From Gammaproteobacteria bacterium (GTDB lineage: Bacteria > Pseudomonadota > Gammaproteobacteria > Pseudomonadales > UBA7434): DNA of 37,108 bases. Numbering within the stretch: the stretch's first letter is position 1; each line of letters opens with the position of its first letter. The notes under the pieces were generated by a model. The model was not told the DNA's origin. It did not search any database and worked only from the letters and a program-made list of their open reading frames with translations. The translations under genes were made by a program, and so were the position numbers. Shown in pieces: positions 5,320 through 26,730 of this stretch. Location: the NCBI GenBank assembly GCA_024280785.1, contig JAJRPK010000036.1, positions 1-37,108 of the forward strand, written 5' to 3'.

Positions 5320-5553
5320 ATGTTGGCAGTATTGGCTGAGGGCTGATGGCGGAGAGGGGTAGGATGTGCGTGAATACTGCTGTTGCTCTACCATATTTTT
5401 TGCTTAGCGCATACAGCACCACAGTTATTGTCAATGGCCATCAGGAAAGCGCGTAGCAAATTCTCGAGTTAGCCAAACCTTCTGGGTGCATATTTCTCTG
5501 CCCGGATAAATATATTTTGGGCGTTAAAATGAGCGGTTGGTAAGTGTGCCTAA

Positions 5554-6447: not shown

Positions 6448-6626
6448 ATATGAGATATCTCATTCGAGTTAGCAAGCAGCCAAATTTTATGCTTTGGCGA
6501 GCCTGTGGACACTTCTATCCAGGACTTATGTTGGGTAAAATATTTTTAATTGCGCTGATCGAAGTGGAGATTAGTGTTAGTTATCACTATGTGATAATAA
6601 CAGAAAAATTGAAGATGTCTCTCCTC

Positions 6627-8440: not shown

Positions 8441-8571
8441 ATCTAGATTGTCCGTTTTAGTGGCAAAATTGGCGACTATTGAAAATTTAACTGATATTAT
8501 CTCACTTCATTTAAAATGATGAATTCAAAAAATTACAGTTTGGTAGAACATCCTAGTTATTCAGGAAATTT

Positions 8572-9417: not shown

Positions 9418-9428
9418 GTTGTTTGTCA

Positions 9429-10190
9429 ATGGATAGCCTAGAAGCTCGGTTGCAGGAATTCCATAATACAGGGTATACAATTGTACCGGCGGTTCTTGAT
9501 AACGAATTCGTAGTTGGTTTACGTTCGGAGCTATGTCGCGCTATCGAGGAAGATAAAAAAGATTATTCTGGTGTTTTTGATGCTGGAATGGTTCACAATT
9601 TGATGATGCGTGGAAAGCTTCTTGCTCAAGTGTTAGAGAATGACACTATGAATGAGACCGTAAGCAGCATTATGTCCGACACCCACATTTTATATGCCTA
9701 TCAGTCGTCTAGCCTTCCGCCAGGGAGTAGCAACTACGGTGGCCGAGTGCATGTTGATAGTCCTAGATTTATAGAGAACTACTGTACAAATGTTGGGGTG
9801 ATCTTTCCTCTCGATGATTTCACTATTGAAAACGGCGCAACTCATGTATTACCGGGAAGCCATAAACTAGAATTCGTCGATCGCGACGTCGAAGACCGGT
9901 ATTTTAGAGCCGTATGTAAAAAAGGAGATATGATCGTATTTCATGGCCGTCTTTGGCACCGGGCGGGAGTTAATAAAACTGATGGTTTTAGGCATGCGAT
10001 TACACTGAATATGTGCAGATCATATATGCGCCAGCGATTCGACTTTCCTCGCATGCTTTCTAACGCATTAATTGATTCTTTAAGTGAGCAGGGTAAGAGA
10101 TTGATTGGAATGAATGTCAGGGTCCCAGTCAGCCTTGCAGAATTTTATTTGCCTGAAGGTGAGCGGCTCTATAAATCTAATCAGGGGTGA
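9429..10190 (+). CDS. Phytanoyl-CoA dioxygenase (PhyH) family Fe(II)/2-oxoglutarate oxygenase
   Basis: About 253 aa. HVDSPRF (H-x-D), THVLPGSH and FHGRLWHRAGVN (distal His plus Arg) fit the PhyH pattern. ATG 9429 preferred; an in-frame TTG at 9423 is possible. Confidence 0.8.
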   Translation: MDSLEARLQEFHNTGYTIVPAVLDNEFVVGLRSELCRAIEEDKKDYSGVFDAGMVHNLMMRGKLLAQVLENDTMNETVSSIMSDTHILYAYQSSSLPPGSSNYGGRVHVDSPRFIENYCTNVGVIFPLDDFTIENGATHVLPGSHKLEFVDRDVEDRYFRAVCKKGDMIVFHGRLWHRAGVNKTDGFRHAITLNMCRSYMRQRFDFPRMLSNALIDSLSEQGKRLIGMNVRVPVSLAEFYLPEGERLYKSNQG

Positions 10191-10193
10191 TTT

Positions 10194-10832
10194 TTGAAAA
10201 AAAAATTACTGATCTACGGGGCAGGTTCATTTGCTCGACAAATGCGATTTTATTTCGATTCGGATAGTGACTATGAAGTAGTTCATTTTGTCGTTGATGA
10301 TTGCTACTACAGCGCAGACCGTTTTGATGGTTTGGCTGTTCTTCGGTTTGAAGAAATTGTTGAGTCATGCCCTCCTCAAGATTACGATATGTTTGTCGCG
10401 ATTGGCTATAAAAATATGGGTTTGCGCTCGTCGATGTTTCAAAGGGCAATTTCAGGAGGCTATTTTTTGGCGAGTTACATAAGCTCGTCTGCGGTAATCG
10501 CCAGCAACGCAAAAATTGGGAAGAATAACGTATTTTTCCCTCAGGTCGTTATAGAGCCGTTTGCCGAGATTAAAGATAATAATATATTTTGGAGTAACAC
10601 AACGATTTGCCATGATGTAAAAATAGGGAGCCATTGTTTTTTTGCGGTTAACTCTATTATTGGCGGTGAAAGCGAGGTGGGCGACACCTGTTTTATTGGT
10701 TTTAATTCAGTCGTTAGAGAAATGCTGAAGATTGGCAGCAACACTTTTCTAGCTGCGGCCAGTTATATAAATAAAAATTCGGATGGCTCGGCAATGTACA
10801 TGGGGGTGCCGGCAAAAAAACACCTTACATAG
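10194..10832 (+). CDS. Left-handed beta-helix (hexapeptide) sugar N/O-acyltransferase, NeuD/PglD-like
   Basis: 212 aa. An N-terminal Rossmann-like KKLLIYGAGSFARQ is followed by hexapeptide repeats (IGKNNVFFPQVVIEPFAEIKDNNIFWSNTTICHDVKIGSHCFF...). TTG 10194 is preceded by an AGGGG SD. Confidence 0.8.
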   Translation: MKKKLLIYGAGSFARQMRFYFDSDSDYEVVHFVVDDCYYSADRFDGLAVLRFEEIVESCPPQDYDMFVAIGYKNMGLRSSMFQRAISGGYFLASYISSSAVIASNAKIGKNNVFFPQVVIEPFAEIKDNNIFWSNTTICHDVKIGSHCFFAVNSIIGGESEVGDTCFIGFNSVVREMLKIGSNTFLAAASYINKNSDGSAMYMGVPAKKHLT

Positions 10833-10840
10833 GCGGGCTG

Positions 10841-11725
10841 CTACAGCCAGAAGTTTAGTTTTTTCCAGGGCATTTCTGTAAAAAGTGATTGCGTGGCATT
10901 AATAACGTCGTGATTAATTGTGCCAATCTTCCCTTGTTCTTTTTCGATATAACCAAGCACTGTGTCTATGTTCGCGTAACCTGTTACGTTGTGTGTGGGG
11001 TATTTAGAGTAATTTTTCTTTTTAAAGCCAAGCATGCTTTTAAAACTAGGCTTGGCGTATTTTAACTCTGCGTTGTAAAGATTGGGGGCACCGTACATGT
11101 TGCAAGCAATGGTTTTTCTTCCCATATGGGCTAGTTCCCACATCGTGCTATTGCCACCTAATTCGTTAGGCTTTATAAAGATAAAGGCATTCGTATAAAC
11201 TTTTTCAATCAGGTCTTGCATCGAAAGATGGCTAGCAAAAATAAACCTGTCTTCCCCTAAATGCTCGATCAAAGGGACGATACATTCTTTGAAAAGGCCT
11301 TTGTTAAGGCCGCTATTATCGTTTAAATAATCTCTTTGATAGTTGCCGCTGTATACGTAAATTTTGTCACCTAAAGGGGTGTTGGTCGGTATATGGTTGA
11401 AATCTTTAACAGATACTGGCCAGGGCTTACATATCACTCCTCGGCTAGAAAGCTGGTGATTTAGCGACTGAGAAAAAACAGGGCAGAAGGTATTGTTAAA
11501 ACTGGGTATCTTCTTAACGTTTTCAAAATCCGATCCGCCGAGAAAAAGTATTTTATAGGATTTATGGTTAATGAATCTTTCTATATCTTCGGGGTGGTAT
11601 ACCCCAATAAAAATTGCCGGGGCATTTGGGTCGTGGTAATCGGCACACGACCAGCTCTTTAGGATATTTTCTTTAAAAAAATCTACCCCGCGAGAAACGT
11701 AGCATTGTGAAAAATCATCTTGCAT
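10841..11725 (-). CDS. Hypothetical protein (possibly GT-B-like C-terminal half)
   Basis: 294-aa ORF with clean coding appearance and no family I can name. NELGGNSTMWELAHMGRKTIACN faintly resembles the nucleotide-sugar-binding helix of GT-B enzymes. Confidence 0.55.
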   Translation of the reverse strand: MQDDFSQCYVSRGVDFFKENILKSWSCADYHDPNAPAIFIGVYHPEDIERFINHKSYKILFLGGSDFENVKKIPSFNNTFCPVFSQSLNHQLSSRGVICKPWPVSVKDFNHIPTNTPLGDKIYVYSGNYQRDYLNDNSGLNKGLFKECIVPLIEHLGEDRFIFASHLSMQDLIEKVYTNAFIFIKPNELGGNSTMWELAHMGRKTIACNMYGAPNLYNAELKYAKPSFKSMLGFKKKNYSKYPTHNVTGYANIDTVLGYIEKEQGKIGTINHDVINATQSLFTEMPWKKLNFWL

Positions 11726-11874
11726 TTATTCTGAGCATCGTTGAATGGCCTTTAGGCGGTGGGAAATAACAGTATTTTCAGCGTAAATATATCAGATTCA
11801 GTAACTGAGTACGAACGCACGGCGTATTTATCTCGCAATGCATCTTGCTGCCAAAGCCTCAATTTAATATTGAC

Positions 11875-12885
11875 CTAATGGTCTAGCTGATATAACGTTC
11901 TCATCGAAAATCCGTAATATATTAACTCTTTGAAGTCATTAGCAAGAATACTGCTAGACAAAGCATTAGAGCTAATGAGGCCAGCCATTATTTCGGCAGA
12001 TTTTTTATAATTGCGTTTTTCGAAGCAATGCTGCATATTTGCTAAGTGTAATCTGCCAACAAATATTTCCTTGCGGTCTACTTCGAACTGTTCAAAGTAA
12101 TGTATGGCACTGTCTATTATGTCTTCTTCATTTCTTTGGGTCATTACTAAGTCTAATTCAGCAATGTCAGCATCTGTGATCGCTCTATTTGTTTTCACGG
12201 CTAGAGTGCTCGCTGCTGTGCTTATTGGAGTAATAAGCCCTGATTCTATCCAGATATAAACAGCGGCAATTAATGTGGCTGACCAGTGGTAGAAAAAATC
12301 CTGGTACACAATATACGAGCCGTTGGCTAATTTGGGTGCGAACCGGTTCAACAATGTTCGGTATTCTTCATACCATTTGGGTAGATCAAAGTGGATAAGT
12401 CTTATCGTTGAATGATCGTGAATCATATCCATAAGTTCGCATTGATTAATGCTTAGCGTGTTTTTGTCTACATCTTTTGAATAGTGTTTAAAAATTTCGA
12501 CAAAGCTAAGAATTCCGTCAGATTCAGACAGTAAATGTGTTACTCCTCCTTTGTCAGCGAATTCCTTAGCGTGAGGGGCAAAGGGCCCATCGACGGCGCA
12601 GGAAAAACTGTCGAACACGGCAAGAGCAGAGACAGACCGTCCGTTAAGTTCGCTGTTGCTTTGGATAATACCGTCAATAATGCATCGGCTGCTTTTTCCG
12701 AAAAACGAACCAAACTCCACTATTTTTTCATCTTTTTTTAAAGTAATTGATTTTGCCAGTTCAAATAAAAGTTTTTGTTCGATAGGTTCGATCATGCCGG
12801 GAATGGCGTTAAGGCCAGCTAATTTAGGTGTGTCCGCACCAGAAATATATTTTTTTATAGATTTCAATAGAGATTTTCTAGGCAT
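11875..12885 (-). CDS. Hypothetical protein with class I methyltransferase-like (Methyltransf_24-type) N-terminal domain
   Basis: 336 aa. GMIEPIEQKLLFELAK...KIVEFGSFFGKSSRCII and LIHFDLPKWYEEYRTLLNRFAPKLANGSYIVYQDF match the layout of cation-dependent OMT-like folds. The C-terminal ~110 aa look helical and are unassigned. Confidence 0.6.
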   Translation of the reverse strand: MPRKSLLKSIKKYISGADTPKLAGLNAIPGMIEPIEQKLLFELAKSITLKKDEKIVEFGSFFGKSSRCIIDGIIQSNSELNGRSVSALAVFDSFSCAVDGPFAPHAKEFADKGGVTHLLSESDGILSFVEIFKHYSKDVDKNTLSINQCELMDMIHDHSTIRLIHFDLPKWYEEYRTLLNRFAPKLANGSYIVYQDFFYHWSATLIAAVYIWIESGLITPISTAASTLAVKTNRAITDADIAELDLVMTQRNEEDIIDSAIHYFEQFEVDRKEIFVGRLHLANMQHCFEKRNYKKSAEIMAGLISSNALSSSILANDFKELIYYGFSMRTLYQLDH

Positions 12886-12993
12886 GGTCTATTTTCCTTG
12901 TTTCGAACTCAAATAATTTTCTGTCAGCGGCAATATAATTTTTCACCGCGTAGAGAGAGAAAAATATTGAGGGCCCACCGTTATTTCATTTGC

Positions 12994-14502
12994 TTAGCTA
13001 TTTTTTATGCGGTAAATTTTTGTTGCGAGCTTTATAAAAAGTAAAGCCACATAACCGCGTATTTTTTTTATTAACGTATTCTTTCTATGCCATTTTGTTT
13101 GTCTGTAAGGTGGGTTAAACAGGCGATCTGCCCAACTGACGTATTTTGGTATATCGCTTGGATCATAGAGTGCTGTATTTAGTTGAAATATTAATGTAGG
13201 CCTCACATTACCAAGAAAAACTTCATTTTTGACTTGAGAGCGAGAAATAAATTGATGCTGAATGGCACTGGCAAGCTCTGCAACCCATATTACGGCTAAG
13301 GGGTTTCGTTTTGATAGCCAAGGTTGAAGTACCATATCGGTGTAGTGAAGGAGTTTAGTTTTCTCGGCATCAAAATGTTCGAGCGAGTTCCATTCATGCT
13401 CAATTAGGCCATCTTTTCGCTCGGCTATTTTCATTTGGTATACGAGATCTTCGTAGTTTAATTCGTTGCTATCTAACGCGGATACTATATTTACTATATC
13501 CCAATTTAATGCAGAACAGTCCATTAGCATAACGCTGTATTGTGGAATCCTGCCGCTGGATGTTTCTTCCCAGGCGCTAAGCACCTGCTGGCCTTTCATA
13601 TCTCTGTAAGCCAGGCCGCGAATGTCGGTAAAAACTTGCATGTCTGAGTCTAGGTATATGGCTCGACCTTTATGAGAGCACAGCTGCGGAATCAAAAAAC
13701 GTTGAAATGAGAACGGAGTTCTCGGTTGGTTTTTTTTGCTTTTGGGTGTAGGTATATGAATATTAGCTTCGCACAAGGGGAGTACTTCAACGTTAGCACT
13801 AGTGTGCAATTTTATCGAGTATTCAAGTACCTTTGTAGCAAGCCATTGATCATTGGTTGTTCCTACGAACACTTTTATACTTTCTTCTCCCAGTGGGGTT
13901 AGCGTCGCACCGAATTTATCTAAGGAGTTGGCAATGGCAATAAACTGTGAGTTGAATGATTGCCTATCATTGGCTAGAAGGGTTTTCTCTTTAAGTGAGT
14001 CAAAGGCATTACTATAGTATTGGCCTCCATCAATACCAATAGATCGCAATGTTTTTTCGCCGGATGATACTAATAGAGCCACCACGGCATCGGCGCTAAA
14101 AAATTTTACAGGTATGATCGGATAGTTTTTTTTGTGGATAAGCGATGTTGAAGAGTTATACCAGATGAGTCTTTTTTCCGCGTTCATTTCGCGTAACAAT
14201 GGAATCTTGCTTTCCCAGTCCGACAAAGATAATTCCCCGGCAGAGTTGTCTACATGGGGATAGAAGGGCATTAATAAAAAACGGGCGTTTTTTTTAATTA
14301 CCTCAGCTAATGGCTCAATTATGTCGATATCAATTACGTGACATATTTCAGCTTTTTGCAGAGTAATAGCGTGGTTAAGCACTAATTTTCGATATTTAGT
14401 GGTATCGTAGTCGGCTATTTTGTTGAACGATGGGCCTTTACCTATCAAGAGCCATGGTAGGTCGCTAGGGTTGTCAGCCATCCAATCTATAAAATTTTGC
14501 AT
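12994..14502 (-). CDS. Two-domain putative glycosyltransferase: N-terminal GT42/CstII- or DUF115-like domain plus C-terminal GT8-like domain
   Basis: 502 aa. The N-terminal LLIGKGPSFNKIADYD and LRSIGIDGGQYY parallel Campylobacter CstII IIAGNGPSLKEIDYS and IYLSGIDFY. The C-terminal IKVFVGTTNDQW, AIYLDSDMQVFTDI (DxD) and LLHYTDMVLQPW parallel GT8 motifs (FAADDNY, YLDxD, HYxGxxKPW). Confidence 0.65.
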   Translation of the reverse strand: MQNFIDWMADNPSDLPWLLIGKGPSFNKIADYDTTKYRKLVLNHAITLQKAEICHVIDIDIIEPLAEVIKKNARFLLMPFYPHVDNSAGELSLSDWESKIPLLREMNAEKRLIWYNSSTSLIHKKNYPIIPVKFFSADAVVALLVSSGEKTLRSIGIDGGQYYSNAFDSLKEKTLLANDRQSFNSQFIAIANSLDKFGATLTPLGEESIKVFVGTTNDQWLATKVLEYSIKLHTSANVEVLPLCEANIHIPTPKSKKNQPRTPFSFQRFLIPQLCSHKGRAIYLDSDMQVFTDIRGLAYRDMKGQQVLSAWEETSSGRIPQYSVMLMDCSALNWDIVNIVSALDSNELNYEDLVYQMKIAERKDGLIEHEWNSLEHFDAEKTKLLHYTDMVLQPWLSKRNPLAVIWVAELASAIQHQFISRSQVKNEVFLGNVRPTLIFQLNTALYDPSDIPKYVSWADRLFNPPYRQTKWHRKNTLIKKIRGYVALLFIKLATKIYRIKNS

Positions 14503-15719: not shown

Positions 15720-17486
15720 TTGGGTTATTTGTTGCAAAATTCAGATTCAGCAGAACAGTCGGAAGACCTTGACGTCGTCCAGACATACCGACGGATTGCG
15801 ACCTATTTGTGGCCGTATCTTTCCTACCTCCTTATAGCTTTTTTTGGTTTTGGTTTGTATGCCATTACCCAGCCTGGATTCGCCATGCTGATGGAAGCTT
15901 TTATCAGGGCGCTTGACGGGGAGCAAGTACGTGGGCTGTACTTTGTTCCTAGCGCTTGTGTGGCGATTGCGCTGCTTCGGGGTATTGGTAGCTATCTGGG
16001 CAGTTACTACATGGCCAAAACAAGTGCAAATTTTGTTCATAATCTTCGCTGTGATTTGTTTGGGCACATAGTTGCTTTGCCCATTCCTTATTTTGACAAG
16101 AATAAGAGTGGTCGGTTAGTTTCGCTGTTTACCTATAATACCAATGTGGTGGCTAGCTCTGGTACGCAAGCAATGACGACGCTCGTTCGTGAAGGACTTA
16201 CAGTGATCGCGCTGTTCGCTTATCTGTTAGTACAAAACTTCCAATTGACCCTCGTATTTCTGCTGCTAGGTCCGCCTTTGGGTTTGGCGATTAACTGGAT
16301 CGGAAAAAAAATCAAACACTTTGGTCGTGGAATCCAAGCGTCAATCGGCGAATTAAACCACGTCTCTGCCGAGGTGTTTGGGGGCATTCGATTAGTTAAA
16401 TCGGCTGTGGGAGAGGCTGACGCCAAAAGGCGGTTTCAATCAATCAGTGCGACAACAAAAAAGTTTGGACTTCGTTTGGCTAAAGTGAGTTCAATATATG
16501 CTCCCATGATGCAGATGATGATTGTCATGGCGTTGGCTGTTGTGATGTACGTTGTACTGCTTTCGCGCGATACTATGGAAGCTGCGGAGCTAATAGCTTA
16601 TGTCGTTGCTGCCGGCTTGCTACCCAAACCGATTAGAAGCCTGAGTGGGGTTTATCCTCGACTTTTACAGGGAGTTGTCGCGGCGGAAGAAGTCTTCCGC
16701 CATATAGATTATGAAAAAGAACTGGATACTGGACAGCTTGATGCGGTAAATATAAAGGGAAACCTAAGGTTTGAAAATGTAGATTTTAGCTACGAAGGGA
16801 TTGAAAAAAATGTGCTTCAAGGTATTAATTTTGATGTTCCTGCCGGTAAAACAGTGGCACTGGTCGGTCGATCCGGCGGAGGCAAGTCAACATTGGTAAA
16901 TTTAATTCCTAGATTTTATTTGGCTACGGGGGGTGAAATTTTGCTAGATTCTCGGCCCATAAGCGAATATAAGTTGGCCTTTTTAAGAAAAAATATAGCA
17001 ACAGTTTCGCAGCAAGTAACACTGTTTAATGATTCTATAGCTAACAATATTGCTTACGGTGTCGAAGACGTATCAATAGCCGACGTTGAAAAAGCTGCGA
17101 AGGCGGCCAATGCACATGACTTTATTAAAGAGTTGCCCGAAGGTTATGAGACGCTTGTCGGTGAAAATGGCGTATTGTTGTCTGGCGGGCAAAGGCAACG
17201 CATAGCTATTGCGCGGGCAGTTCTTCGAGGGTCAGCCATATTAATCCTGGATGAAGCAACTTCGGCGCTAGACAATGAATCTGAAGTAAAAGTACAAAAT
17301 GCATTAGAAAAATTAATGGCTAACAGAACAACCTTTGTTATTGCGCATCGTCTTTCAACGATAGAGCATGCAGATTCTATTTTGGTATTAGATGAAGGCA
17401 GAATTATCGAGCAGGGAACCCATGCCGACTTAATGGAACAGTCCGGATTTTACCATCGTATGGTTCAGCGAGATTTTAGTGAATGA
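15720..17486 (+). CDS. msbA: Lipid A / LPS-core flippase, ABC transporter permease-ATPase MsbA
   Basis: 588 aa. TM region followed by Walker A GRSGGGKST, signature LSGGQRQR, Walker B ILILDEATSALD and H-loop AHRLST. The N-terminus VQTYRRIATYLWPY parallels E. coli MsbA WQTFRRLWPT. No in-frame ATG is usable, so the start is one of TTG 15720/15729/15732. Confidence 0.9.
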   Translation: MGYLLQNSDSAEQSEDLDVVQTYRRIATYLWPYLSYLLIAFFGFGLYAITQPGFAMLMEAFIRALDGEQVRGLYFVPSACVAIALLRGIGSYLGSYYMAKTSANFVHNLRCDLFGHIVALPIPYFDKNKSGRLVSLFTYNTNVVASSGTQAMTTLVREGLTVIALFAYLLVQNFQLTLVFLLLGPPLGLAINWIGKKIKHFGRGIQASIGELNHVSAEVFGGIRLVKSAVGEADAKRRFQSISATTKKFGLRLAKVSSIYAPMMQMMIVMALAVVMYVVLLSRDTMEAAELIAYVVAAGLLPKPIRSLSGVYPRLLQGVVAAEEVFRHIDYEKELDTGQLDAVNIKGNLRFENVDFSYEGIEKNVLQGINFDVPAGKTVALVGRSGGGKSTLVNLIPRFYLATGGEILLDSRPISEYKLAFLRKNIATVSQQVTLFNDSIANNIAYGVEDVSIADVEKAAKAANAHDFIKELPEGYETLVGENGVLLSGGQRQRIAIARAVLRGSAILILDEATSALDNESEVKVQNALEKLMANRTTFVIAHRLSTIEHADSILVLDEGRIIEQGTHADLMEQSGFYHRMVQRDFSE

Positions 17487-17788
17487 ATGTTGAAGACATA
17501 CGGTTAAGAGTTTTAGTGTTGGGCGACCTCGGCGACCTCGGCCAGCTCAGATTTGACATATTTTCAAACTACCCTAACGGTTATGAGTTATTGCGCGCTT
17601 CAGATTTCGCTGTTGATATCTGCGAGTCGGAAGCATGCACTCGCATGTTGAACCAGTTAGCGCCGGACGTAGTGATAAACGCAGCGGCATGTACTAAGGT
17701 GGATCAAGCAGAGAAAGAGCGAGTCCGTGCATTCGCGGTGAACAGCGTTGCGCTTATTAGTTCAGGGTTTACAGGGTTGGACCGATGA
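17483..17788 (+). pseudogene. rfbD: Truncated dTDP-4-dehydrorhamnose reductase (RfbD/RmlD) N-terminal stub
   Basis: The 101-aa ORF matches only the first third of RmlD: the Rossmann glycine region VLVLGDLGDLGQL, and PDVVINAAACTKVDQAEKE versus E. coli PDVIVNAAAHTAVDKAESE. It stops before the catalytic YxxxK region. ATGA overlaps occur with both the msbA stop and the rfbB start. Confidence 0.75.
17522..17539. repeat. Perfect 9-bp tandem duplication GGCGACCTC x2 inside the rfbD stub
   Basis: Read directly: gGGCGACCTCGGCGACCTCggc. It encodes the duplicated DLG in LGDLGDLGQL. Confidence 0.9.
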
Positions 17789-19921: not shown

Positions 19922-20476
19922 GTGGAAGTTCGCAGCCTGGCAATACCCGATGTAAAGCTCATAACTCCGCAACGGTTTGGTGATGGTCGAGGATACTTTG
20001 AACAAACATATCACCGTGATGACTATGCTAGTGCCGGTATTGATGCAGAGTTTGTGCAGGACAATCACTCAAAATCGAGTTTGATGGTGTTACGTGGTTT
20101 GCACTACCAGTTGAAAAACTCGCAGGCAAAATTGGTGAATGTACTGTCGGGCAGCGTTTTCGATGTGGCTGTGGATTTGCGCCGGTCGTCGTCATTTTTT
20201 GGGCGCTGGGTGGGGGAAGAGTTATCGGCGGAAAATGGCCACCAGCTTTTTATTCCTCGTGGCTTCGCGCACGGCTTTCTCGTCTTAAGTGATGAAGTTA
20301 ATTTCTATTACAAGTGCGATAATTTCTATAGTCCGGGCGATGAGTATTGCTTGCGCTGGGATGACCCTTCAATTGCCATCGATTGGCCCATAGTCGGTAA
20401 GCCATTACTATCTACAAAAGACTTAAAGGGTGTAAATTTGGCTTCAATTCCGGTTGAACAGCTATTTATTGATTAG
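19922..20476 (+). CDS. rfbC: dTDP-4-dehydrorhamnose 3,5-epimerase
   Basis: 184 aa. F.D.RGYF.E, RGLHYQ and FIPRGFAHGF are RmlC cupin motifs. GTG start at 19922. Confidence 0.93.
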   Translation: MEVRSLAIPDVKLITPQRFGDGRGYFEQTYHRDDYASAGIDAEFVQDNHSKSSLMVLRGLHYQLKNSQAKLVNVLSGSVFDVAVDLRRSSSFFGRWVGEELSAENGHQLFIPRGFAHGFLVLSDEVNFYYKCDNFYSPGDEYCLRWDDPSIAIDWPIVGKPLLSTKDLKGVNLASIPVEQLFID

Positions 20477-20809
20477 CGCTCAATATTTGAGCAAAAACGA
20501 TCGCTGCGACAAGAATAGTACAAAAAACAACTCAAGCTTCTATCAGTAAACTGGATGACCAAGCCCTCCAATCTTAGCTTTAGTCATGCATACGTTTCCG
20601 AAAATTGACACTAAACTTTTTTTAACGTAGCTGTTACCGATTATCCGACAATATTTGATTAAAAAACAGTCACCTGCTCTAGACGTTTAGGGTGCTTTGT
20701 AAGAGAATGCGCGGTTCATTTTCATCGTCCGATTGCCGTTGTTCGTGCCCTCGCTATTTGGCTCATTTATGGTCAAGTCCGAGAGCTAGGAAGGCTTGCC
20801 GGCGCATCA

Positions 20810-22387
20810 ATGGTTGTTAAAACGTCAATGAGTCAGTTAGACAAAAAAAATTCGGGTTCAGATAGGGCAGCTCGATCTACTGAGGTCGCGAATGAAAGGC
20901 CTTCGGCAATCCTGCCCCCTTCTTCGGGGGATTTAGGCCACTATGTTAAAGCTGCTATCGATGCAAACCGTGGCCAAGATCTTAATCGCACGCAAGTTGC
21001 CGATGATAGTATCCAACTTAAGTTACAAGGTTCTTCAATCAATTTGTCGTCGGTAGAGTCGCAACAATTGGCCTCAGGGTCTTGTGCTGCCAGGCCGCTA
21101 AAAATTTGTATTACCGGATATCGTAGTGCTCCATTTGGTGGCGGGCAGGGAATTTACATAAAGTATTTGAGTAAGGCTTTAGTTGAAGCAGGTCATGACG
21201 TTGAAGTGATTTCTGGTCAGCCGTATCCCCACCTCGACCTTCGGGTAAAGCTGATTAAAATGCCGGGGCTGGACTTATTTAATAATGGCCTCGGTTCGCT
21301 ACGGTTACAGCACTTAAATTCTTTGACTAACATAATCGAATGGCTGAGTAAGTTGACCGGTGGTTTTGCCGAGCCTTATTGTTTTAGTCGACGTGTCTAC
21401 AATTATCTTTGTCAGCACGGCTCTCATTACGACATTATTCACGACAACCAGTGTTTAGGTTGGGGAATGCTCAAGTTGCAAGACAAAGGGTTTAAGCTGC
21501 TGACGACGATTCATCACCCTATTACCAGTGATTTACAAATTGCGCTCAATGCTTGCGATAAATGGTGGGAGAGGATACTCATTAGGCGCTGGCATTCGTT
21601 TTTAAAAATGCAAAAAACTGTCGCATCTAAACTCGATCACGTAGTAACAGTTTCTCAGCGGTCGCGTATTGACATTGCGAAAGCATTTGCTCTCGACGAA
21701 AAAAATATTCAGCTCGTCTACAACGGCATCGATACTGATGAATTCCGTTCGATGCCCCATGTCGCTCGCAAGCCATGGCAAATCATGGCAACAGCGTCGG
21801 CAGATCAACCATTGAAAGGGTTGAAGTATTTATTAATCGCGGTATCAAAATTAGTGGTTACTTACCCGCAACTCAGGTTGCTGTTAGTGAGCAAGCCTAA
21901 GCCGGATGGAGAAACGGAACAACTTATTAAGCGTCTTAAGTTGTCGAACTTTATTCATTTTGTTCATGGGATTAGCACTGAAGAACTCGTCAAATGTTAC
22001 GCAGAATCGAGCGTTGCGGTTGTTCCGTCAGTCTACGAAGGGTTTGGTTTGCCCGCTGGCGAAGCTATGGCCTGCGGCGTTCCCGTGGTTTCGACTAACG
22101 GCGGAGCATTGCCAGAAGTCGTGGGTGATGCCGGTATTATCGTCGGTATAAAAAACGCCGATGCGTTGGCCGGCGCGATTGAATCTTTGCTGAATGATGA
22201 GCTTGCGCGTCAACGTTATAGTGAGTTGGGCCGACAGAGAATCGAAGATAAATTTTCCTGGCGTATAGCGGCTGAGCAACTATCTCAGTTTTACTGCAAT
22301 ATTATTGATGACGAATCGACTGGGCTTGAAGATCAAAATTTTCCTGTCGAAAATTTTCAACTGGGGGTCGCAAGTGCAAACAGTTGA
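20810..22387 (+). CDS. Glycosyltransferase family 4 with an ~86-aa low-complexity N-terminal extension (start uncertain)
   Basis: The GT-B core starts at LKICITGYRSAPFGGGQGIYIKYLSKALVEAGHDV, and EGFGLPAGEAMACGVPVVSTNGGALPEVV is the E-x7-E region. ATG 20810 gives 525 aa. An in-frame TTG at 21068 would give a conventional ~439-aa GT4. Confidence 0.85.
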   Translation: MVVKTSMSQLDKKNSGSDRAARSTEVANERPSAILPPSSGDLGHYVKAAIDANRGQDLNRTQVADDSIQLKLQGSSINLSSVESQQLASGSCAARPLKICITGYRSAPFGGGQGIYIKYLSKALVEAGHDVEVISGQPYPHLDLRVKLIKMPGLDLFNNGLGSLRLQHLNSLTNIIEWLSKLTGGFAEPYCFSRRVYNYLCQHGSHYDIIHDNQCLGWGMLKLQDKGFKLLTTIHHPITSDLQIALNACDKWWERILIRRWHSFLKMQKTVASKLDHVVTVSQRSRIDIAKAFALDEKNIQLVYNGIDTDEFRSMPHVARKPWQIMATASADQPLKGLKYLLIAVSKLVVTYPQLRLLLVSKPKPDGETEQLIKRLKLSNFIHFVHGISTEELVKCYAESSVAVVPSVYEGFGLPAGEAMACGVPVVSTNGGALPEVVGDAGIIVGIKNADALAGAIESLLNDELARQRYSELGRQRIEDKFSWRIAAEQLSQFYCNIIDDESTGLEDQNFPVENFQLGVASANS

Positions 22388-23108
22388 GTTTAAACATATA
22401 GCATTGCAAGCGGGAGATAAAGTCCTTGATTTGGGCTGTGGCGAAGGTCGGCATGTTATTTCGGCATATCTAGAAGGCGATGTTCAGGCCGTAGGTGTTG
22501 ATTTAGGATTTGAAGACTTAAAAATCACCGCCGAAAAATTTGCTGATTTTTCTGAACCTGATAACGACAAAAAAAGTTTTGGTTTGTCAGTCGCTAACGC
22601 TTTGAGTTTGCCGTTTGCCGATAATACATTTGAGGTGGTGATTTGTTCAGAAGTGTTAGAGCATATCCCGGATTATAGCTCGGCGCTAATTGAAATAGAG
22701 CGCGTACTGGTTCCCGGTGGAACTTTTGTCGCCAGTGTGCCGCGTGCATGGCCCGAGAAAATTTGCTGGGCATTTAGCAGCGCTTACCATCAGGTTGAAG
22801 GTGGCCATTTGCGCATCTTTAATGCGGCACAATTGCGTGGTGAAATCGAAGCACGAGGATTTAAGCATTACCGTCGTCATTGGGCGCACGCATTGCATGC
22901 GCCATTTTGGTGGTTGAAATGCTTGTTTTGGGAAAAACAGGAACAGTCTAAATTGATTGCTTGGTACCATAAGTTATTGGTTTGGGATCTTATGGAGCAT
23001 CCTTGGATAACTCGCGGGTTAGAGAAAATATTAAATCCGGTTATGGGTAAGAGTGTTGTGATGTACTTTCAAAAGCAGCAGCCCGCTACCGAAGGCTTAG
23101 TGGAATAA
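22374..23108 (+). CDS. Class I SAM-dependent methyltransferase (Methyltransf_11 type)
   Basis: VLDLGCGEGRHV (motif I), FADNTFEVVICSEVLEHI and VLVPGGTFVASVP. I prefer GTG 22374 (GGGGG SD 8 nt upstream, 14-nt overlap with the GT4 stop) over the longer ORF-track start at 22305, which overlaps the GT4 by 83 nt. Confidence 0.85.
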   Translation: MQTVEFKHIALQAGDKVLDLGCGEGRHVISAYLEGDVQAVGVDLGFEDLKITAEKFADFSEPDNDKKSFGLSVANALSLPFADNTFEVVICSEVLEHIPDYSSALIEIERVLVPGGTFVASVPRAWPEKICWAFSSAYHQVEGGHLRIFNAAQLRGEIEARGFKHYRRHWAHALHAPFWWLKCLFWEKQEQSKLIAWYHKLLVWDLMEHPWITRGLEKILNPVMGKSVVMYFQKQQPATEGLVE

Positions 23109-23112
23109 ATTT

Positions 23113-24189
23113 ATGAGTGGTTTGTATTTATCAAAGGGATTGTTTCCAGAATCTTTTTTTGCTCCGACGGCAGAGTATATTCGTTCGGCGCAACAAGGCA
23201 GTGGAGCAATACCCTGGTTTGAAGGGGGTTATTGTGACCCTTGGGACCACGTTGAAGCAGCGATGGGGCTAAGTATTTGTGGTGACTATGGCAATGCTGA
23301 GCGCGCGTACCAGTGGTTGTCAGATCGACAGTTGGACGACGGAAGTTGGTGGGCGGCCTATAAAGACGACAAGATAGAAAACTTTGAACGACGCGAAACC
23401 AACTTTATTGCGTACATCGCAACAGGCGTATGGCATCATTATTTGATAAGTCAAAACCGGCGCTTTCTTGAGAATATGTGGCCCACGGCCGAAAAAGCGA
23501 TTAAGTTTGTCGTTGCTCAGCAGCAAGATGAGGGGGATATTAACTGGGCGGTAGATGAGCAAGGGCAGCCAAAAAATGACGCTCTAATCACAGGTTGCTG
23601 CTCCATTTATAAAAGCTTAGAGTGCGCGCATAATATTTCTATTACCTTAAATTATTTACGGCCCGAGTGGTTGATGGCGCGCGAAAAACTGGGTGTGGCT
23701 TTACGAACTAAACCCCATCGTTTCGACCGGACTTGGGAGAGTAAGTCGCGATATTCAATGGACTGGTTTTATCCTGTTTTGACTGGCGTAATACCAAAGC
23801 CGCAAGCCTCGGCTTATTTACAGTCTCGATGGAGCGAATTTGTAGAAAAAGACATGGGTTGCCGTTGTGTATCTGATGAGCCGTGGGTAACAATTGCCGA
23901 GTCCTGTGAACTGACAATGGCATTGTTGGCGGCGGGCGATCATGCGCGAGCGGTAGAAGTTTATAGTTGGTTGCATCAGTGGCAGTTAAAAGACGGATCG
24001 TATTGGACTGGTTATCAATTTGCTCAAGATTTGCTCTGGCCAGATGAAAAGCCGACTTGGACAGCAGGGGCGATCTTGTTAGCGGCAGATGCATTAACTG
24101 AGCATACAGCGGCTTCTCGATTATTTACCTGTGTTGAATTGTTAGATAGTCGAGTTGAAGAGTCGATAGAGCGAGTGTCGCCGCGTTAG
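23113..24189 (+). CDS. Alpha/alpha-toroid protein (prenyltransferase / squalene-cyclase-repeat or six-hairpin-glycosidase-like), function unknown
   Basis: 358 aa. Recurrent aromatic repeat motifs YQWLSDRQLDDGSWW and SWLHQWQLKDGSYW are typical of terpenoid-cyclase/prenyltransferase-type toroids. It is single-barrel in size (about half of a squalene-hopene cyclase), with no DxDDTA motif seen. It starts 4 nt after the methyltransferase stop. Confidence 0.7.
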   Translation: MSGLYLSKGLFPESFFAPTAEYIRSAQQGSGAIPWFEGGYCDPWDHVEAAMGLSICGDYGNAERAYQWLSDRQLDDGSWWAAYKDDKIENFERRETNFIAYIATGVWHHYLISQNRRFLENMWPTAEKAIKFVVAQQQDEGDINWAVDEQGQPKNDALITGCCSIYKSLECAHNISITLNYLRPEWLMAREKLGVALRTKPHRFDRTWESKSRYSMDWFYPVLTGVIPKPQASAYLQSRWSEFVEKDMGCRCVSDEPWVTIAESCELTMALLAAGDHARAVEVYSWLHQWQLKDGSYWTGYQFAQDLLWPDEKPTWTAGAILLAADALTEHTAASRLFTCVELLDSRVEESIERVSPR

Positions 24190-24196
24190 ATTTGCG

Positions 24197-24823
24197 TTAA
24201 ATTCTTATAAATCTGCCTAGCGTATTAACGGTAGGCAGCTCCTCAAACAAACCTGAAGATTTTGCAAGTTTCCAAATCGTATAAGGCGCTTGGCCGCCTT
24301 CATCGGGGTTAGGAAAGATGTCGTGAATGGCGAGAATGCCCCCTATGGCCACGTGTGCGGCCCAAGCGCGGTAGTCGGCCATGGCGGCCTCCATGCTGTG
24401 CCCGCCGTCAATAAAAACCAAACCTAACGGTGTAGACCAGCGTTGAGATGCCGTGGTGGAAGAAGCCACAATGGGAATGACTGTATCCTTTAGTTTGGCA
24501 CGACGCATGACTTTACGGAACTCTTTAAAAGTGTCGACCATTTCTACGTCGCTATCGTATAGGTCGCTATCGTGATATTCCTCGCCTAATTGATGCTCTT
24601 CGGAACCGCGATGATGATCAATCGCGTAGACGATATTGCCGGTTTGCTTGCAGGCGGTGCCTAAATAGACGGTGGACTTTCCGCAGTAGCTTCCTACTTC
24701 GAGGCAGGGACCTATATTGCTTGCCGACGTAGCGGCTTCAAATAAAGCGGCCCCTTCTTCGGGAGCGAGGAAACCTTTGACACTATCGATGTCGAGAGGG
24801 AGTGTGGGTAGTTTGGTGGACAT
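24197..24823 (-). CDS. Class I SAM-dependent methyltransferase, cation-dependent O-methyltransferase-like (Methyltransf_24 type)
   Basis: CLEVGSYCGKSTVYLG (SAM motif I), VFIDGGHSMEAAMADY and GGILAIHDIF. Convergent with the toroid gene (7-nt gap). The start is uncertain: ATG 24823, ATG 24841 or TTG 24856. Confidence 0.8.
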   Translation of the reverse strand: MSTKLPTLPLDIDSVKGFLAPEEGAALFEAATSASNIGPCLEVGSYCGKSTVYLGTACKQTGNIVYAIDHHRGSEEHQLGEEYHDSDLYDSDVEMVDTFKEFRKVMRRAKLKDTVIPIVASSTTASQRWSTPLGLVFIDGGHSMEAAMADYRAWAAHVAIGGILAIHDIFPNPDEGGQAPYTIWKLAKSSGLFEELPTVNTLGRFIRI

Positions 24824-24880
24824 AATAAGGTGAGCACTCATTAACAGGGGGAACAAAACAGGCGCGCACCATAGCGATAA

Positions 24881-24903
24881 TTGACAGCGAAGGCAACTGT
24901 CAA
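24881..24903. promoter_or_regulatory. Perfect inverted repeat TTGACAG-N9-CTGTCAA in a divergent promoter region (candidate operator)
   Basis: Read directly: TTGACAGCGAAGGCAACTGTCAA, lying between the minus-strand methyltransferase and the plus-strand acyl-CoA synthetase. Confidence 0.3.
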
Positions 24904-25059
24904 AGCTGTCGATAGCAGATTGTATGAGGGTGGTTTAATGCAGCAACAAGCTGTGGGGAGTATACTAAAGCGAAAGTGACGAGTTCAATCGTCGTCTCTA
25001 TAAATAATCTTTATCCAGTGCTGTGCATACCCATGTTATAAATAATCAGAGAAAAACAT

Positions 25060-26730
25060 ATGACCGCATCTAGCCCCTCCGCTCTAACAATTGCCAAACT
25101 AATTATTGCTCAAAAGGACAATGATCAGACAGCTATATTATTTGAAGATCAGCGCTGGTCCTATCGTGACTACGTTTCGGCCTGCATTAATTTTGCCAAC
25201 TTATTATTAGAGCATAAACAGCCAGGCCCGTTTCATGTCGCTGTATTGTTAGACAATGTCCCCGAATATTTAGTTGTGTTAGGCGCAGCCTCTCTCGTGG
25301 GCGCAGCTGTTGTCGGGTTAAATCCGACTCGCCGTGGTGCCGAGCTAGAGCGAGATATCCGCCATAGTGATTGTCAGTTTTTAGTGACGGAAAATAATCA
25401 TTTGCAAGATCTGGACTCGTTGGATCTTCAGATTCCTGATGCTCGTTGTTATAACATCGATACCCCGCGGTGGGGCGAGTTACTGGCATCGCAAAAATCC
25501 AAACCGATACCCGATGTTCCGATAAATGCGGCTGATGTGTATTTGCTCGTATTTACCTCGGGGACAACGGGCAATCCTAAAGCGGCAATTTGCACCCAAG
25601 CTCGCTTAGCAGGAATTGCCGAAGTGTTTCCTGCCATGAGCGGGCTTGATAAGACGTCGGTTAGCTATTTGGCGATGCCACTCTTTCACTCGAATTCCTT
25701 AATGGCCAATTGGGCGCCGATGGTGGCTGTGGGTGCAGCCGTAGCTCTGAGACGGAAATTTTCCGCTTCGGGTTTTCTGCCCGACATTCGCCGGTTCAAT
25801 TGCACTTTCATGAATTATGTGGGAAAACCGCTCACCTATATTTTGGCAACTCCAGAGCAGGATGATGATCAAGATAATTCTTTAGTCTTGGCGTTTGGCA
25901 ACGAGGCAGTGGTTCACGATATTGCACTGTTTGAAAAACGTTTTGGCTGTCATGTGAGTGATAATTATGGCTCGACCGAGGGTGGGATTAATATTGTGCG
26001 AACAGCCGATACACCAGCGGCTGCGTTGGGGATGGGGCAGCCGGGTACAGTTGTTCTTAAGCCCGAGACGGGAGAGGAATGTCCACTGGCCCAGTTTGAC
26101 AGCAGCGGAAAATTAATTAACGCTGACGAGGCCGTGGGAGAAATCGCCAACGTAGAGACGGCTTCTAGTTTCGAAGGTTATTGGAGAAACGAGGATGCAA
26201 ACACCGAACGGACTGAAGGAGACATTTTTTGGAGCGGCGACCTTGGTTATCGCGATAAAAAGGGGTTTCTATATTTTGGTGGTAGAAACTACGATTGGTT
26301 GAGAGTTGATGGAGAAAATTTTGCTGCTGCGCCGCTAGAAAATATTTTGACCCGACATAGTGAAATTGGCATTGCGGCGGTCTACGCGGTGCCAAATTCT
26401 GATGGTGGGGATGATGTGATGGCGACATTGCTTCTACATCCTGATAGCCATTTTGAGGCGTTAGAGGTGGCAGATTTTTTATCAAATCAGAGCGACATGG
26501 GCAGCAAGTGGTTACCTAAATACATTCGCGTTACTCAGAACATGCCTACCACAGCATCGAATAAAATAATTAAGCGCGAGCTTAGGGCGCAAGGTTGGGA
26601 GTGTGATGATACCGTTTGGTTGCGCCAGAGTGATGGCACTTTTAATTTAATGACATCGGCAGATTGCCAGGATATTCGTAAAAAGTTCGCGTCGAGAGAG
26701 CGAGAAGCGCTAATAGATTTTTCTGCATGA
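25060..26730 (+). CDS. Acyl-CoA synthetase / AMP-dependent ligase (FadD-like)
   Basis: 556 aa. LLVFTSGTTGNPKAA (AMP-binding motif I), DNYGSTEGG and GDLGYRDKKGFLYFGGRNYDWLRVDGENF (A8 region). Confidence 0.9.
   Translation: MTASSPSALTIAKLIIAQKDNDQTAILFEDQRWSYRDYVSACINFANLLLEHKQPGPFHVAVLLDNVPEYLVVLGAASLVGAAVVGLNPTRRGAELERDIRHSDCQFLVTENNHLQDLDSLDLQIPDARCYNIDTPRWGELLASQKSKPIPDVPINAADVYLLVFTSGTTGNPKAAICTQARLAGIAEVFPAMSGLDKTSVSYLAMPLFHSNSLMANWAPMVAVGAAVALRRKFSASGFLPDIRRFNCTFMNYVGKPLTYILATPEQDDDQDNSLVLAFGNEAVVHDIALFEKRFGCHVSDNYGSTEGGINIVRTADTPAAALGMGQPGTVVLKPETGEECPLAQFDSSGKLINADEAVGEIANVETASSFEGYWRNEDANTERTEGDIFWSGDLGYRDKKGFLYFGGRNYDWLRVDGENFAAAPLENILTRHSEIGIAAVYAVPNSDGGDDVMATLLLHPDSHFEALEVADFLSNQSDMGSKWLPKYIRVTQNMPTTASNKIIKRELRAQGWECDDTVWLRQSDGTFNLMTSADCQDIRKKFASREREALIDFSA

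Follow-up and report, generated by a model that had tools for sequence, protein, structure and literature searches.

A gammaproteobacterial gene cassette resembling the actinobacterial methylmannose polysaccharide module

The window analysed here, a stretch of 37,108 nucleotides from a gammaproteobacterial contig, contains four tightly packed genes at positions 20810–24856, separated from rmlC by a 333-nt non-coding gap (20477–20809) that presumably holds the promoter or leader region. The first encodes a GT4 glycosyltransferase homologous to ManT (20810–22387, plus strand), the second a homologue of pMeT3 (22374–23108, plus strand) that overlaps it by 14 nt, and the third, after 4 nt, a 358-residue toroid protein homologous to MmpH (23113–24189, plus strand). 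A MeT1 homologue (24197–24856, minus strand) converges on the latter across 7 nt. The ORF list reproduces the positions and spacings given in the initial annotation. The 14-nt overlap presupposes a GTG start at 22374 for the pMeT3 homologue, rather than the TTG at 22305 in the mechanical ORF list, and what favours the GTG is that M. agri pMeT3 then aligns from the first residue. The ManT homologue probably starts at Met7 (20828), since relatives carry an N-terminus resembling MSQSNKK, and the MeT1 homologue probably at an internal ATG (24841 or 24823) instead of the TTG at 24856. No transmembrane-grade hydrophobic segment occurs in any of the four proteins, with MsbA-like and TatC controls positive, and secretion features are likewise absent. 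An Rfam search of 20300–25200 matched no family, and a consensus promoter scan of the gap upstream of ManT returned 9 matches against 7.3 expected from shuffles; there is no enrichment, and no promoter was assigned.

The closest known counterpart is the mycobacterial 3-O-methylmannose polysaccharide (MMP) cluster, comprising ManT, pMeT3, MmpH and MeT1 in M. hassiacum (MHAS_04402–04405) and M. smegmatis (MSMEG_6481–6484), which was reportedly covered by Ripoll-Rozada in PNAS in 2019. It is also treated by Maranha 2023 in Commun Biol (PMC9883506). All four window proteins are 43–47% identical, over their full length, to the M. agri counterparts, and the E values of 2e-59 to 2e-109, from one comparison each, place the match far beyond chance. 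The M. agri genes overlap or abut in the order ManT, pMeT3 and MmpH (plus strand) and MeT1 (minus strand), the same order and orientation as in the window, and the M. hassiacum genes agree as well. For three of the proteins, M. hassiacum enzymes are the best or only strong PDB matches: 7QSJ for the MmpH homologue (E=7.2e-91 over residues 16–343), 7QSG for the ManT homologue (E=4.9e-96 over residues 97–495) and, for the MeT1 homologue, 6G7D, which we take to be the MeT1 of that species. The former two are M. hassiacum MmpH and ManT, respectively (PMC9883506). The fourth protein is 44% identical to M. agri pMeT3 over 243 residues (E=5e-72). With conserved, experimentally defined catalytic residues, these matches carry the earlier proposal of an MMP-like cassette (a GT4 ManT, two O-methyltransferases and a hydrolase) beyond functional class to specific orthology, and the similarity far exceeds a generic fold.

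Both systems feature overlapping starts and stops, a convergent MeT1, and soluble, presumably cytoplasmic proteins. Their settings differ: the window host is a Gram-negative marine gammaproteobacterium with LPS-core, rml and tat genes nearby, whereas the mycobacterial cluster is accompanied by TetR and P450 genes.

The ManT homologue contains the Pfam domains Glyco_transf_4 and Glycos_transf_1, in agreement with its GT4 assignment, is 43% identical to M. agri ManT over 406 residues (E=2e-109), and groups with ManT rather than WaaG. Residues G111, H235, K336, E410, G411, F412, L414 and E418 correspond to G15, H142, K240, E313, G314, F315, L317 and E321 of ManT; these positions cover catalytic, ribose, phosphate and mannosyl-loop residues and are invariant in 72/72 sequences. 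The acceptor (N-terminal) domain is conserved like the donor domain (43% vs 47%). Pfam likewise upholds both methyltransferase family calls. The pMeT3 homologue (Methyltransf_11, E=3.4e-19) is a putative SAM-dependent 3-O-methyltransferase and shares 43% identity with the N-terminal half of a natural MeT3-MmpH fusion (P0271); pMeT3 is biochemically uncharacterised even in mycobacteria. The convergent protein (Methyltransf_24, E=1.8e-23) matches only 6G7D/6G80/6H40 in the PDB (E=1.4e-55), sharing the long identical blocks DHH.GSEEHQ.G.EYHD, FIDGGH and IHD.FP.P..GGQAP. With M. agri MeT1 it shares 45% identity (E=2e-59), which points to a 1-O-methyltransferase-like MeT1 homologue.

The toroid protein shares 47% identity with M. 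agri MmpH (E=2e-104). Its residues D42, W44, D45, F98, T160, M216, Y220, E263 and E266 align with MmpH D47, W49, D50, F102, T163, M215, Y219, E262 and E265, nine residues assigned to the active site and adjacent subsite by mutagenesis or structure (PMC9883506), and are invariant in 83/83 sequences. This signature is discriminating, because only 19 of 67 family representatives carry it in full. Pfam returns only sub-threshold GH95-like and GH15-like matches. The (α/α)6-barrel inverting glycosidases of GH15 and GH125 (clan GH-L) are themselves only ~10–13% identical to MmpH, and the window protein falls far under their cut-offs (51 vs 821 bits). Because of the homology to 7QSJ and the nine invariant residues, the protein is therefore predicted to be an MmpH-type, (α/α)6-barrel endo-α-(1→4)-mannosidase-like enzyme, and not a prenyltransferase. 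The suggestion that it is a glycoside hydrolase thus holds: the catalytic residues are kept, and prenyltransferase motifs and hits are lacking.

Of 80 loci from related species, 66 (in Halieaceae, Spongiibacteraceae, Litorivivens, Oceanicoccus and BD1-7) hold the cassette complete, canonical and syntenic, and contig ends cut 8 of the remaining 14. MeT1 is missing within 6 kb at five loci whose sequence extends on both sides. Median identities of 58–70% to the window proteins are consistent with purifying selection. Outside these species, Teredinibacter turnerae T7901 and one Desulfovermiculus MAG carry the intact cassette in unrelated genomic contexts, which extends its conservation to other phyla. 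An acyl-CoA synthetase lies beside the cassette in 0/80 related loci, and a functional link to the one next door in the window, which the initial annotation offered as only suggestive, is not supported.

We consider it likely, from these sequence comparisons, that the four genes are an orthologous copy of the actinobacterial module for MMP biosynthesis and recycling; the sugar identity, linkage, methylation pattern and physiological role are what we infer by analogy. It is unlikely that the module instead makes a related, chemically different methylated polymer by the same logic of extension, methylation, capping and cleavage, with another donor (dTDP- or UDP-linked, conceivably tied to the adjacent rml genes) or another chain length or substitution pattern. 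Such a product would fit the systematic change at Asp293, the predicted guanine-N2 contact of mycobacterial ManT, which is T390 in the window, Thr in almost every gammaproteobacterial sequence (69) and in Desulfovermiculus, and Ser in Teredinibacter; donor nucleotide specificity could therefore differ. Gammaproteobacterial ManT also has a low-complexity N-terminal extension of ~40–90 residues (~90 in the window protein, whose closest relatives share it) that mycobacterial ManT lacks. The window has dTDP-rhamnose genes (rmlBAC) upstream of the cassette, and in ~40 Halieaceae-type loci rmlA/rmlC are found directly upstream of ManT in divergent orientation. However, no rml genes accompany the cassette in the relatives closest to the window (L002–L007), Spongiibacteraceae, Oceanicoccus, BD1-7, Teredinibacter and Desulfovermiculus, and the rmlD of the window is only a 101-residue remnant. 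At the nine catalytic and subsite positions of MmpH and in the mannosyl loop of ManT, the residues are identical to those of the mycobacterial enzymes, which makes L-rhamnose or an otherwise different backbone hard to reconcile. In Teredinibacter and a Thermodesulfobacteriota MAG, hexapeptide acyltransferases adjoin the cassette, which suggests acylated variants, and the acetylated MMP (AMMP) of Streptomyces griseus offers a precedent (PMC9883506), whereas the window cassette has no adjoining acyltransferase.

A role in an LPS or envelope glycan locus, with a methylated mannan destined for lipid A-core or some other surface structure, appears improbable. Its appeal is positional. In the window, an LPS glycosyltransferase island lies upstream, and an msbA-like ABC transporter and rml genes are present; in Cellvibrionales, LPS-core and nucleotide-sugar genes (rml, hldE, waaA, msbA) usually adjoin the cassette, with hldE directly downstream in 45 loci and waaA nearby in 33. 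In position, the separation from the LPS locus is therefore weaker than the initial annotation assumed. Recurrent neighbours (hldE, waaA, tolC, cpdA-like, DUF1249 and parE) form a conserved housekeeping backbone consistent with plain synteny, and neither they nor the annotated ORFs include an O-antigen export or polymerase gene of the wzx/wzy/wzm/wzt/waaL type. The flanks in Teredinibacter (his genes, thioredoxin and pqiAB/mlaD) and Desulfovermiculus are unrelated to LPS, and the cassette matches the core genome in GC content, whereas the LPS island of the window is low in GC. Polymannose O-antigen systems with methyl terminators, such as E. coli O8/O9a (WbdA/B/C, WbdD and Wzm/Wzt) and the poly-3-O-methylmannose O-antigen of Oligotropha carboxidovorans, resemble the window in placing GT4 mannosyltransferases and SAM methyltransferases beside LPS genes, and they make methylated mannose polymers. 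However, those polymers are lipid-linked, exported by the Wzm/Wzt ABC transporter and joined by α-(1→2) or α-(1→3) linkages (α-(1→2) in Oligotropha), with neither reducing-end 1-O-methylation nor a dedicated intracellular endo-hydrolase. All four window proteins match MMP enzymes instead. By established biochemistry, undecaprenyl-linked assembly is not compatible with an intracellular endo-hydrolase or with MeT1-type capping of a free reducing-end 1-OH.

A reading of the 358-residue protein as a prenyltransferase or an enzyme like terpenoid cyclases, with the cassette acting on an isoprenoid or other non-carbohydrate substrate, is for practical purposes refuted by sequence: the DGSWW and DGSYW motifs, present in the translation, resemble QW repeats superficially, and NCBI/UniRef homologues are named "prenyltransferase" or [quoted passage not shown], but no Pfam prenyltransferase or cyclase matches at E<0.01, the mutagenesis-validated Asp/Asp/Glu of a biochemically and structurally characterised endomannosidase are kept, and bona fide mycobacterial MmpH orthologues bear the same label, which marks it as an annotation artefact.

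Under the favoured assignment to MMP biosynthesis and recycling, the pathway may follow the "partially conservative replication" model of mycobacteria (PMC9883506). In the cytoplasm, ManT would lengthen α-(1→4)-oligomannoside primers from a nucleotide-mannose donor (PMC9883506), pMeT3 would methylate the 3-OH of newly added mannoses, MeT1 would add a 1-O-methyl cap at the free reducing end, and MmpH would cut mature chains internally into defined oligomers for reuse as primers. Such a pathway would yield a polymethylated oligo- or polysaccharide that is soluble and intracellular rather than a lipid-linked envelope glycan, although with rml and hldE/waaA/msbA adjacent, a connection with envelope glycans is conceivable.

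Binding of acyl-CoA or fatty acids and cold adaptation have been proposed as roles of MMP in mycobacteria. Gammaproteobacteria are not known to possess FAS-I, nor is the window host known to have mycolic acids or MGLP, and as modulation of FAS-I is what has been proposed for MMP, the physiological role is not simply transferable. The MMP-cluster homologues that PMC9883506 cites from Nocardia, Rhodococcus and Corynebacterium, together with AMMP, indicate that neither cluster nor polymer is strictly mycobacterial and that acylated variants exist, yet all of these hosts are Actinobacteria. Our literature search found no report of MMP-type clusters outside that group. The polymer has so far been reported only from actinobacteria, and the cassette described here is conserved in dozens of marine species.

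The cassette consists of four genes, of which the last runs convergently to the other three. A 525-aa GT4 protein homologous to ManT is encoded by an ORF at 20810-22387 (+), followed by a pMeT3 homologue of the Methyltransf_11 family (22374, a GTG codon, to 23108, +), the 358-aa MmpH homologue (23113-24189, +) and a MeT1 homologue of the Methyltransf_24 family (24197-24856, -). The ManT gene lies 333 nt from rmlC and overlaps the pMeT3 gene by 14 nt, with 4 nt between pMeT3 and MmpH and 7 nt between MmpH and MeT1. The 14-nt figure presupposes that pMeT3 starts at GTG 22374, which is the correct start because its alignment to mycobacterial pMeT3 then begins at residue 1. These ORF positions and gap sizes confirm the initial annotation, and Pfam HMMs agree with its assignment of a GT4, a Methyltransf_11-type methyltransferase and a second methyltransferase. 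For ManT, initiation at Met7 (20828) is suggested by the 'MSQSNKK'-type start common to its closest relatives. No riboswitch or other known RNA was found in the 333-nt leader or the rest of the cassette, and consensus scans for promoters and terminators gave no enrichment over shuffles. Hydrophobic segments of transmembrane grade or resembling signal peptides are absent from all four cassette proteins, with the MsbA-like protein and TatC as positive controls.

An MMP-like cassette, that is, one resembling the mycobacterial cluster for 3-O-methylmannose polysaccharide, had been proposed at the outset, and specific homology, gene layout, residue conservation and retention across species support this proposal. 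The convergent methyltransferase matches only 6G7D, 6G80 and 6H40 in the PDB (E=1.4e-55), with long identical motif blocks; we take these entries to be M. hassiacum MeT1. The sole strong PDB match of the 358-aa protein is 7QSJ (E=7.2e-91, residues 16-343), and the GT4 protein matches 7QSG (E=4.9e-96), seventy orders of magnitude ahead of other glycosyltransferases. These structures are M. hassiacum MmpH and ManT, respectively (Maranha et al. 2023, PMC9883506). The cluster in that species comprises MHAS_04402 (ManT), 04403 (pMeT3), 04404 (MmpH) and 04405 (MeT1) (PMC9883506), a numbering that follows the gene order in the window.

As pMeT3 is without a solved structure, a Mycolicibacterium agri locus was used for comparison. 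It encodes ManT (+, 411 aa), pMeT3 (+, 243 aa), MmpH (+, 356 aa) and MeT1 (-, 223 aa) in overlapping or abutting genes, and the window has the same layout, including the convergent MeT1. In pairwise BLASTP the window proteins share 43% identity with M. agri ManT (406 aa, E=2e-109), 44% with pMeT3 (243 aa, E=5e-72), 47% with MmpH (332 aa, E=2e-104) and 45% with MeT1 (190 aa, E=2e-59). The pMeT3 homologue is a putative 3-O-methyltransferase, an activity that is putative in mycobacteria too. We consider it likely that the cassette represents an orthologous module of the MMP type whose polymer product resembles MMP.

The 358-aa protein had been proposed to be a glycoside hydrolase rather than a prenyltransferase, and its MmpH identity and conserved catalytic residues bear this out. 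It has no prenyltransferase or SQHop_cyclase match in Pfam or NCBIfam at E<=0.01 and does not fit that group by isoprenoid-diphosphate binding motifs; the lack of family matches, the strong identity to MmpH and the conserved catalytic residues lead us to reject a prenyltransferase or cyclase. The matches returned for this protein are GH95-like and GH15-like and all sub-threshold. Membership of the GH15 glucoamylases and glucodextranases is rejected by scores of 51 bits for TIGR01577 (cut-off 821) and 19 for TIGR01535 (cut-off 742), and the relation to GH15 is at the clan or fold level only, as for MmpH itself (PMC9883506). NCBI and UniRef nevertheless label the MmpH-family records (P0001-P0240) as 'prenyltransferase' or 'prenyltransferase/squalene oxidase repeat-containing protein', a label that genuine mycobacterial MmpH orthologues also carry. 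One JGI record among the gammaproteobacterial matches reads 'MMP endo-(1,4)-3-O-methyl-alpha-D-mannosidase', where NCBI usually has 'prenyltransferase'. Members of a characterised glycoside hydrolase family are systematically misnamed in this way, an error pervasive in the databases that the present assignment corrects.

Residue conservation was assessed by aligning the window proteins with the 80 related gammaproteobacterial loci and mycobacterial sequences. Mutagenesis and structure define nine residues in MmpH, namely the candidate catalytic acids Asp47/Asp50, the base Glu262, and Trp49, Phe102, Thr163, Met215, Tyr219 and Glu265 in the subsites (PMC9883506). All nine are identical in the window protein and invariant in the 83 sequences aligned (83/83). 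This signature discriminates, because only 19 of 67 representatives of the wider family carry it in full (Cellvibrionales, Teredinibacter, mycobacteria and four others); about half of the family has Asn in place of Asp50, and Phe102 and Thr163 are variable. In ManT, Gly15, His142, Lys240, the mannosyl loop Glu313-Gly-Phe-x-Leu317 and Glu321 are invariant in 72 of 72 sequences, and the acceptor-binding N-domain (43% identity) and the donor domain (47%) are comparably conserved. The one systematic departure is at Asp293, a residue predicted by superposition on PimA, where it equals Asp253, to contact guanine N2. Across the 72 sequences this column holds Thr in 69, Asn in one and Asp in two, both of the latter being M. 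agri loci. The equivalent is Thr390 in the window ManT (21977 region), Thr in Desulfovermiculus and Ser in Teredinibacter, so that the replacement is clade-wide and at a predicted nucleotide-base site. ManT also bears a low-complexity N-terminal extension that is absent in mycobacteria; it spans ~90 aa in the window's sub-lineage, and relatives have a median of 38 residues ahead of the first conserved motif.

Relatives of the MmpH-like protein number in the thousands. A scan of species-representative genomes yielded at least 574 encoding stretches, and the best 80 of these, 65-84% identical to the window MmpH, all belong to marine Cellvibrionales-type Gammaproteobacteria. Carriers among these 80 include Halieaceae (Halioglobus, Congregibacter, Seongchinamella, Parahaliea), Spongiibacteraceae, Zhongshania, Oceanicoccus, Litorivivens, BD1-7, HTCC2143 and NOR5-3; the closest among the matches listed are uncultured 'Pseudomonadales/Cellvibrionales' MAGs with 77-84% MmpH identity. 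Sixty-six of the 80 loci hold all four genes in canonical order and orientation. Of the 14 others, contig ends truncate eight, and six are without an intact gene in reach: Zhongshania and three MAGs have no MeT1 there, and two loci have no intact ManT. Five loci with both flanks sequenced, L054, L079 (Zhongshania), L062, L063 and L070, contain ManT, MeT3 and MmpH with no MeT1 within 6 kb, and ManT is also damaged in L070; these loci could serve as natural variants for the reducing-end capping role. Two MAGs labelled Cryomorphaceae and Bacteroidia (L035 and L067) carry cassettes 69-70% identical to the window's, with rmlC/rmlA upstream in L067. Synteny in both is gammaproteobacterial, and the contigs probably derive from Gammaproteobacteria and were mis-binned, instead of marking true carriers in the Bacteroidota.

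An exhaustive search of 50%-identity representatives recovered 255 family clusters at E<1e-30, with named members in Teredinibacter turnerae, Desulfovermiculus, other Thermodesulfobacteriota, Acidimicrobiales and Chloroflexota. T. turnerae T7901 has a complete cassette with a hexapeptide acyltransferase, flanked by his genes, a thioredoxin gene and pqiAB/mlaD-type genes. The Desulfovermiculus MAG has a complete cassette as well, with a BrnT/BrnA toxin-antitoxin pair (4032-4538 of its locus) ahead of MeT1. A simple NJ tree places Cellvibrionales, Desulfovermiculus and Teredinibacter together, separate from the mycobacterial clade, and the window proteins are 47-61% identical to those of Desulfovermiculus compared with 43-47% for M. 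agri. In some Actinomycetota MAGs MeT3 and MmpH are naturally fused (P0271, 590 aa; residues 1-239 MeT3-like and 43% identical to the window MeT3, residues 264-588 MmpH-like), which independently ties the two activities together. In Litorivivens and one Spongiibacteraceae MAG (L009, 7090-10623; L010, L012, L018, L019), one or two Peptidase_S15/alpha-beta-hydrolase genes lie between MmpH and MeT1. As either these genes or, in Desulfovermiculus, BrnT/BrnA occupy the MmpH/MeT1 junction, it tolerates insertions.

The mycobacterial product is a cytoplasmic, linear chain of 11-14 alpha-(1->4)-linked 3-O-methyl-D-mannose units with a 1-O-methyl aglycon. By orthology with the mycobacterial model, ManT would elongate alpha-(1->4)-oligomannoside primers that are at least 3-4 units long, and pMeT3 would 3-O-methylate the newly added units. 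MeT1 would cap free reducing ends with a 1-O-methyl group, and MmpH would cleave finished chains to tetra- to octamers, which then prime further ones. The homology, the cluster layout and the conservation of residues and across species are direct observations, whereas the sugar, how it is linked, the length of the chain and its physiological role are inferred. A variant module that uses another donor or makes another product is a less probable alternative, suggested mainly by the Asp293-to-Thr change in ManT and the frequent rml adjacency; a different backbone sugar is opposed by the identical MmpH subsite residues. Hexapeptide-repeat acyltransferase genes adjoin the cassette in two unrelated lineages, T. 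turnerae T7901 (7670-8395 of its locus) and a Thermodesulfobacteriota MAG (1912-2703). They hint that the MMP-like product is acylated there, much as the MMP known from Streptomyces griseus is acetylated (PMC9883506).

That the cassette belongs functionally to LPS or another envelope glycan has a small probability. Upstream of it in the window is an LPS region with a lipid A acyltransferase, GT4/GT2/GT8-like glycosyltransferases, an MsbA-type ABC transporter, an rmlD remnant, rmlB, rmlA and rmlC; fadD, tatCBA, hisE/hisI and ubiB/ubiJ/ubiE lie downstream. LPS-related housekeeping genes are also commonly near the cassette in relatives, with rmlA/rmlC upstream and divergent in about 40 loci, hldE as the next downstream gene in 45 and waaA in the vicinity in 33, on a backbone shared with tolC, a cpdA-like gene, DUF1249 and parE. 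The initial annotation had set the cassette apart from the LPS locus, and the survey of 80 loci qualifies this: LPS-related genes often adjoin the cassette in relatives. Genes for O-antigen export or polymerisation were not found. Specifically, neither Wzm/Wzt nor Wzx or Wzy occurs among the annotated window ORFs or the recurrent neighbours, and the only ABC protein near the cassette is the fused MsbA-type transporter (ABC_membrane + ABC_tran). In contrast, ABC-transporter-dependent polymannose O-antigen loci (WbdA/D, Wzm/Wzt) have an adjacent exporter and a WbdD-type terminator and assemble their glycan on a lipid, a type that the cassette does not match. We read the LPS proximity as synteny inherited along the margin of the LPS-core region, not as a functional tie, because the surroundings of the cassette in Teredinibacter and Desulfovermiculus have no relation to LPS and because reducing-end 1-O-methylation and an intracellular endo-hydrolase are at odds with lipid-linked assembly. 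The GC content of the cassette is at the core-genome level, unlike that of the low-GC LPS island in the window.

This island (~5500-14500) has a GC content of 0.37-0.42, compared with 0.44-0.50 elsewhere in the window, and contains GT2s, WbqC, a DegT aminotransferase, a PglD-like acetyltransferase, a PhyH dioxygenase, two methyltransferases and a GT8-like protein. The island has the appearance of a variable locus for LPS/LOS sugar decoration that was probably acquired horizontally, and its composition differs from that of the MMP-like cassette. The rmlD remnant (17483-17788, +, 101 aa) matches only the first ~80 positions of a 287-aa RmlD model. At its start it overlaps the stop of the MsbA-like gene, and at its stop the start of rmlB. 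A Halioglobus RmlD query found no match to the remaining rmlD sequence in the window. As the window holds no other RmlD-like sequence, the local rmlB, rmlA and rmlC set for dTDP-rhamnose appears to be without a functional rmlD.

The acyl-CoA synthetase gene fadD (25060-26730, +) is best matched in NCBIfam by the CasI steroid-22-oyl-CoA synthetase (605 bits), FadD1 (560) and FadD17 (512), all below cut-offs and all actinobacterial-type families. A link between this gene and the cassette, raised by the initial annotation, fails as a conserved functional association, with the gene absent beside the cassette in all 80 related loci and MeT1 abutting tatC in the closest of them (L002, L003). Its absence there suggests that fadD was inserted between MeT1 and tatC in a lineage-specific event.

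Polymethylated polysaccharides, including MMP and MGLP, are regarded as peculiar to mycobacteria and their close actinobacterial relatives, and their role, whether in acyl-CoA sequestration, FAS-I modulation or thermal adaptation, has been debated since the 1970s. The published cluster survey covers mycobacteria and a few related actinobacteria only, with no mention of Proteobacteria (PMC9883506). In the literature searched, which leaves most subscription journals outside, no MMP-type clusters or polymethylated polysaccharides are reported beyond Actinobacteria. The marine gammaproteobacterial cassettes add members from an unexpected taxonomic group to a known system and do not amount to a system of a new kind. 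We lean, with some reserve, towards the view that abundant marine Gammaproteobacteria (OM60/NOR5-type Halieaceae, Spongiibacteraceae, BD1-7, Litorivivens and Teredinibacter), some Thermodesulfobacteriota and possibly Chloroflexota make an intracellular polymethylated mannose polysaccharide through a self-sufficient, horizontally mobile four-gene module.

MMP must already be present for the published mechanism to run, yet all four genes have evidently been transferred together between phyla. If the above view is true, the 'partially conservative' cycle would need some way of priming de novo that just these four genes either encode or can work with, a question that the module makes testable. Many cultured, fast-growing marine bacteria of the Gram-negative type carry the conserved, intact cassette and offer independent systems for probing the purpose of the polymer. 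The cassette also points to an overlooked, widespread intracellular glycan in ecologically abundant marine bacteria, and the carriers could, speculatively, be a bacterial source of marine O-methylated hexoses. If the above view holds, MMP would be no actinobacterial speciality bound to FAS-I and mycolic-acid physiology, and would represent a widespread lipid-binding or cold-adaptation polymer.
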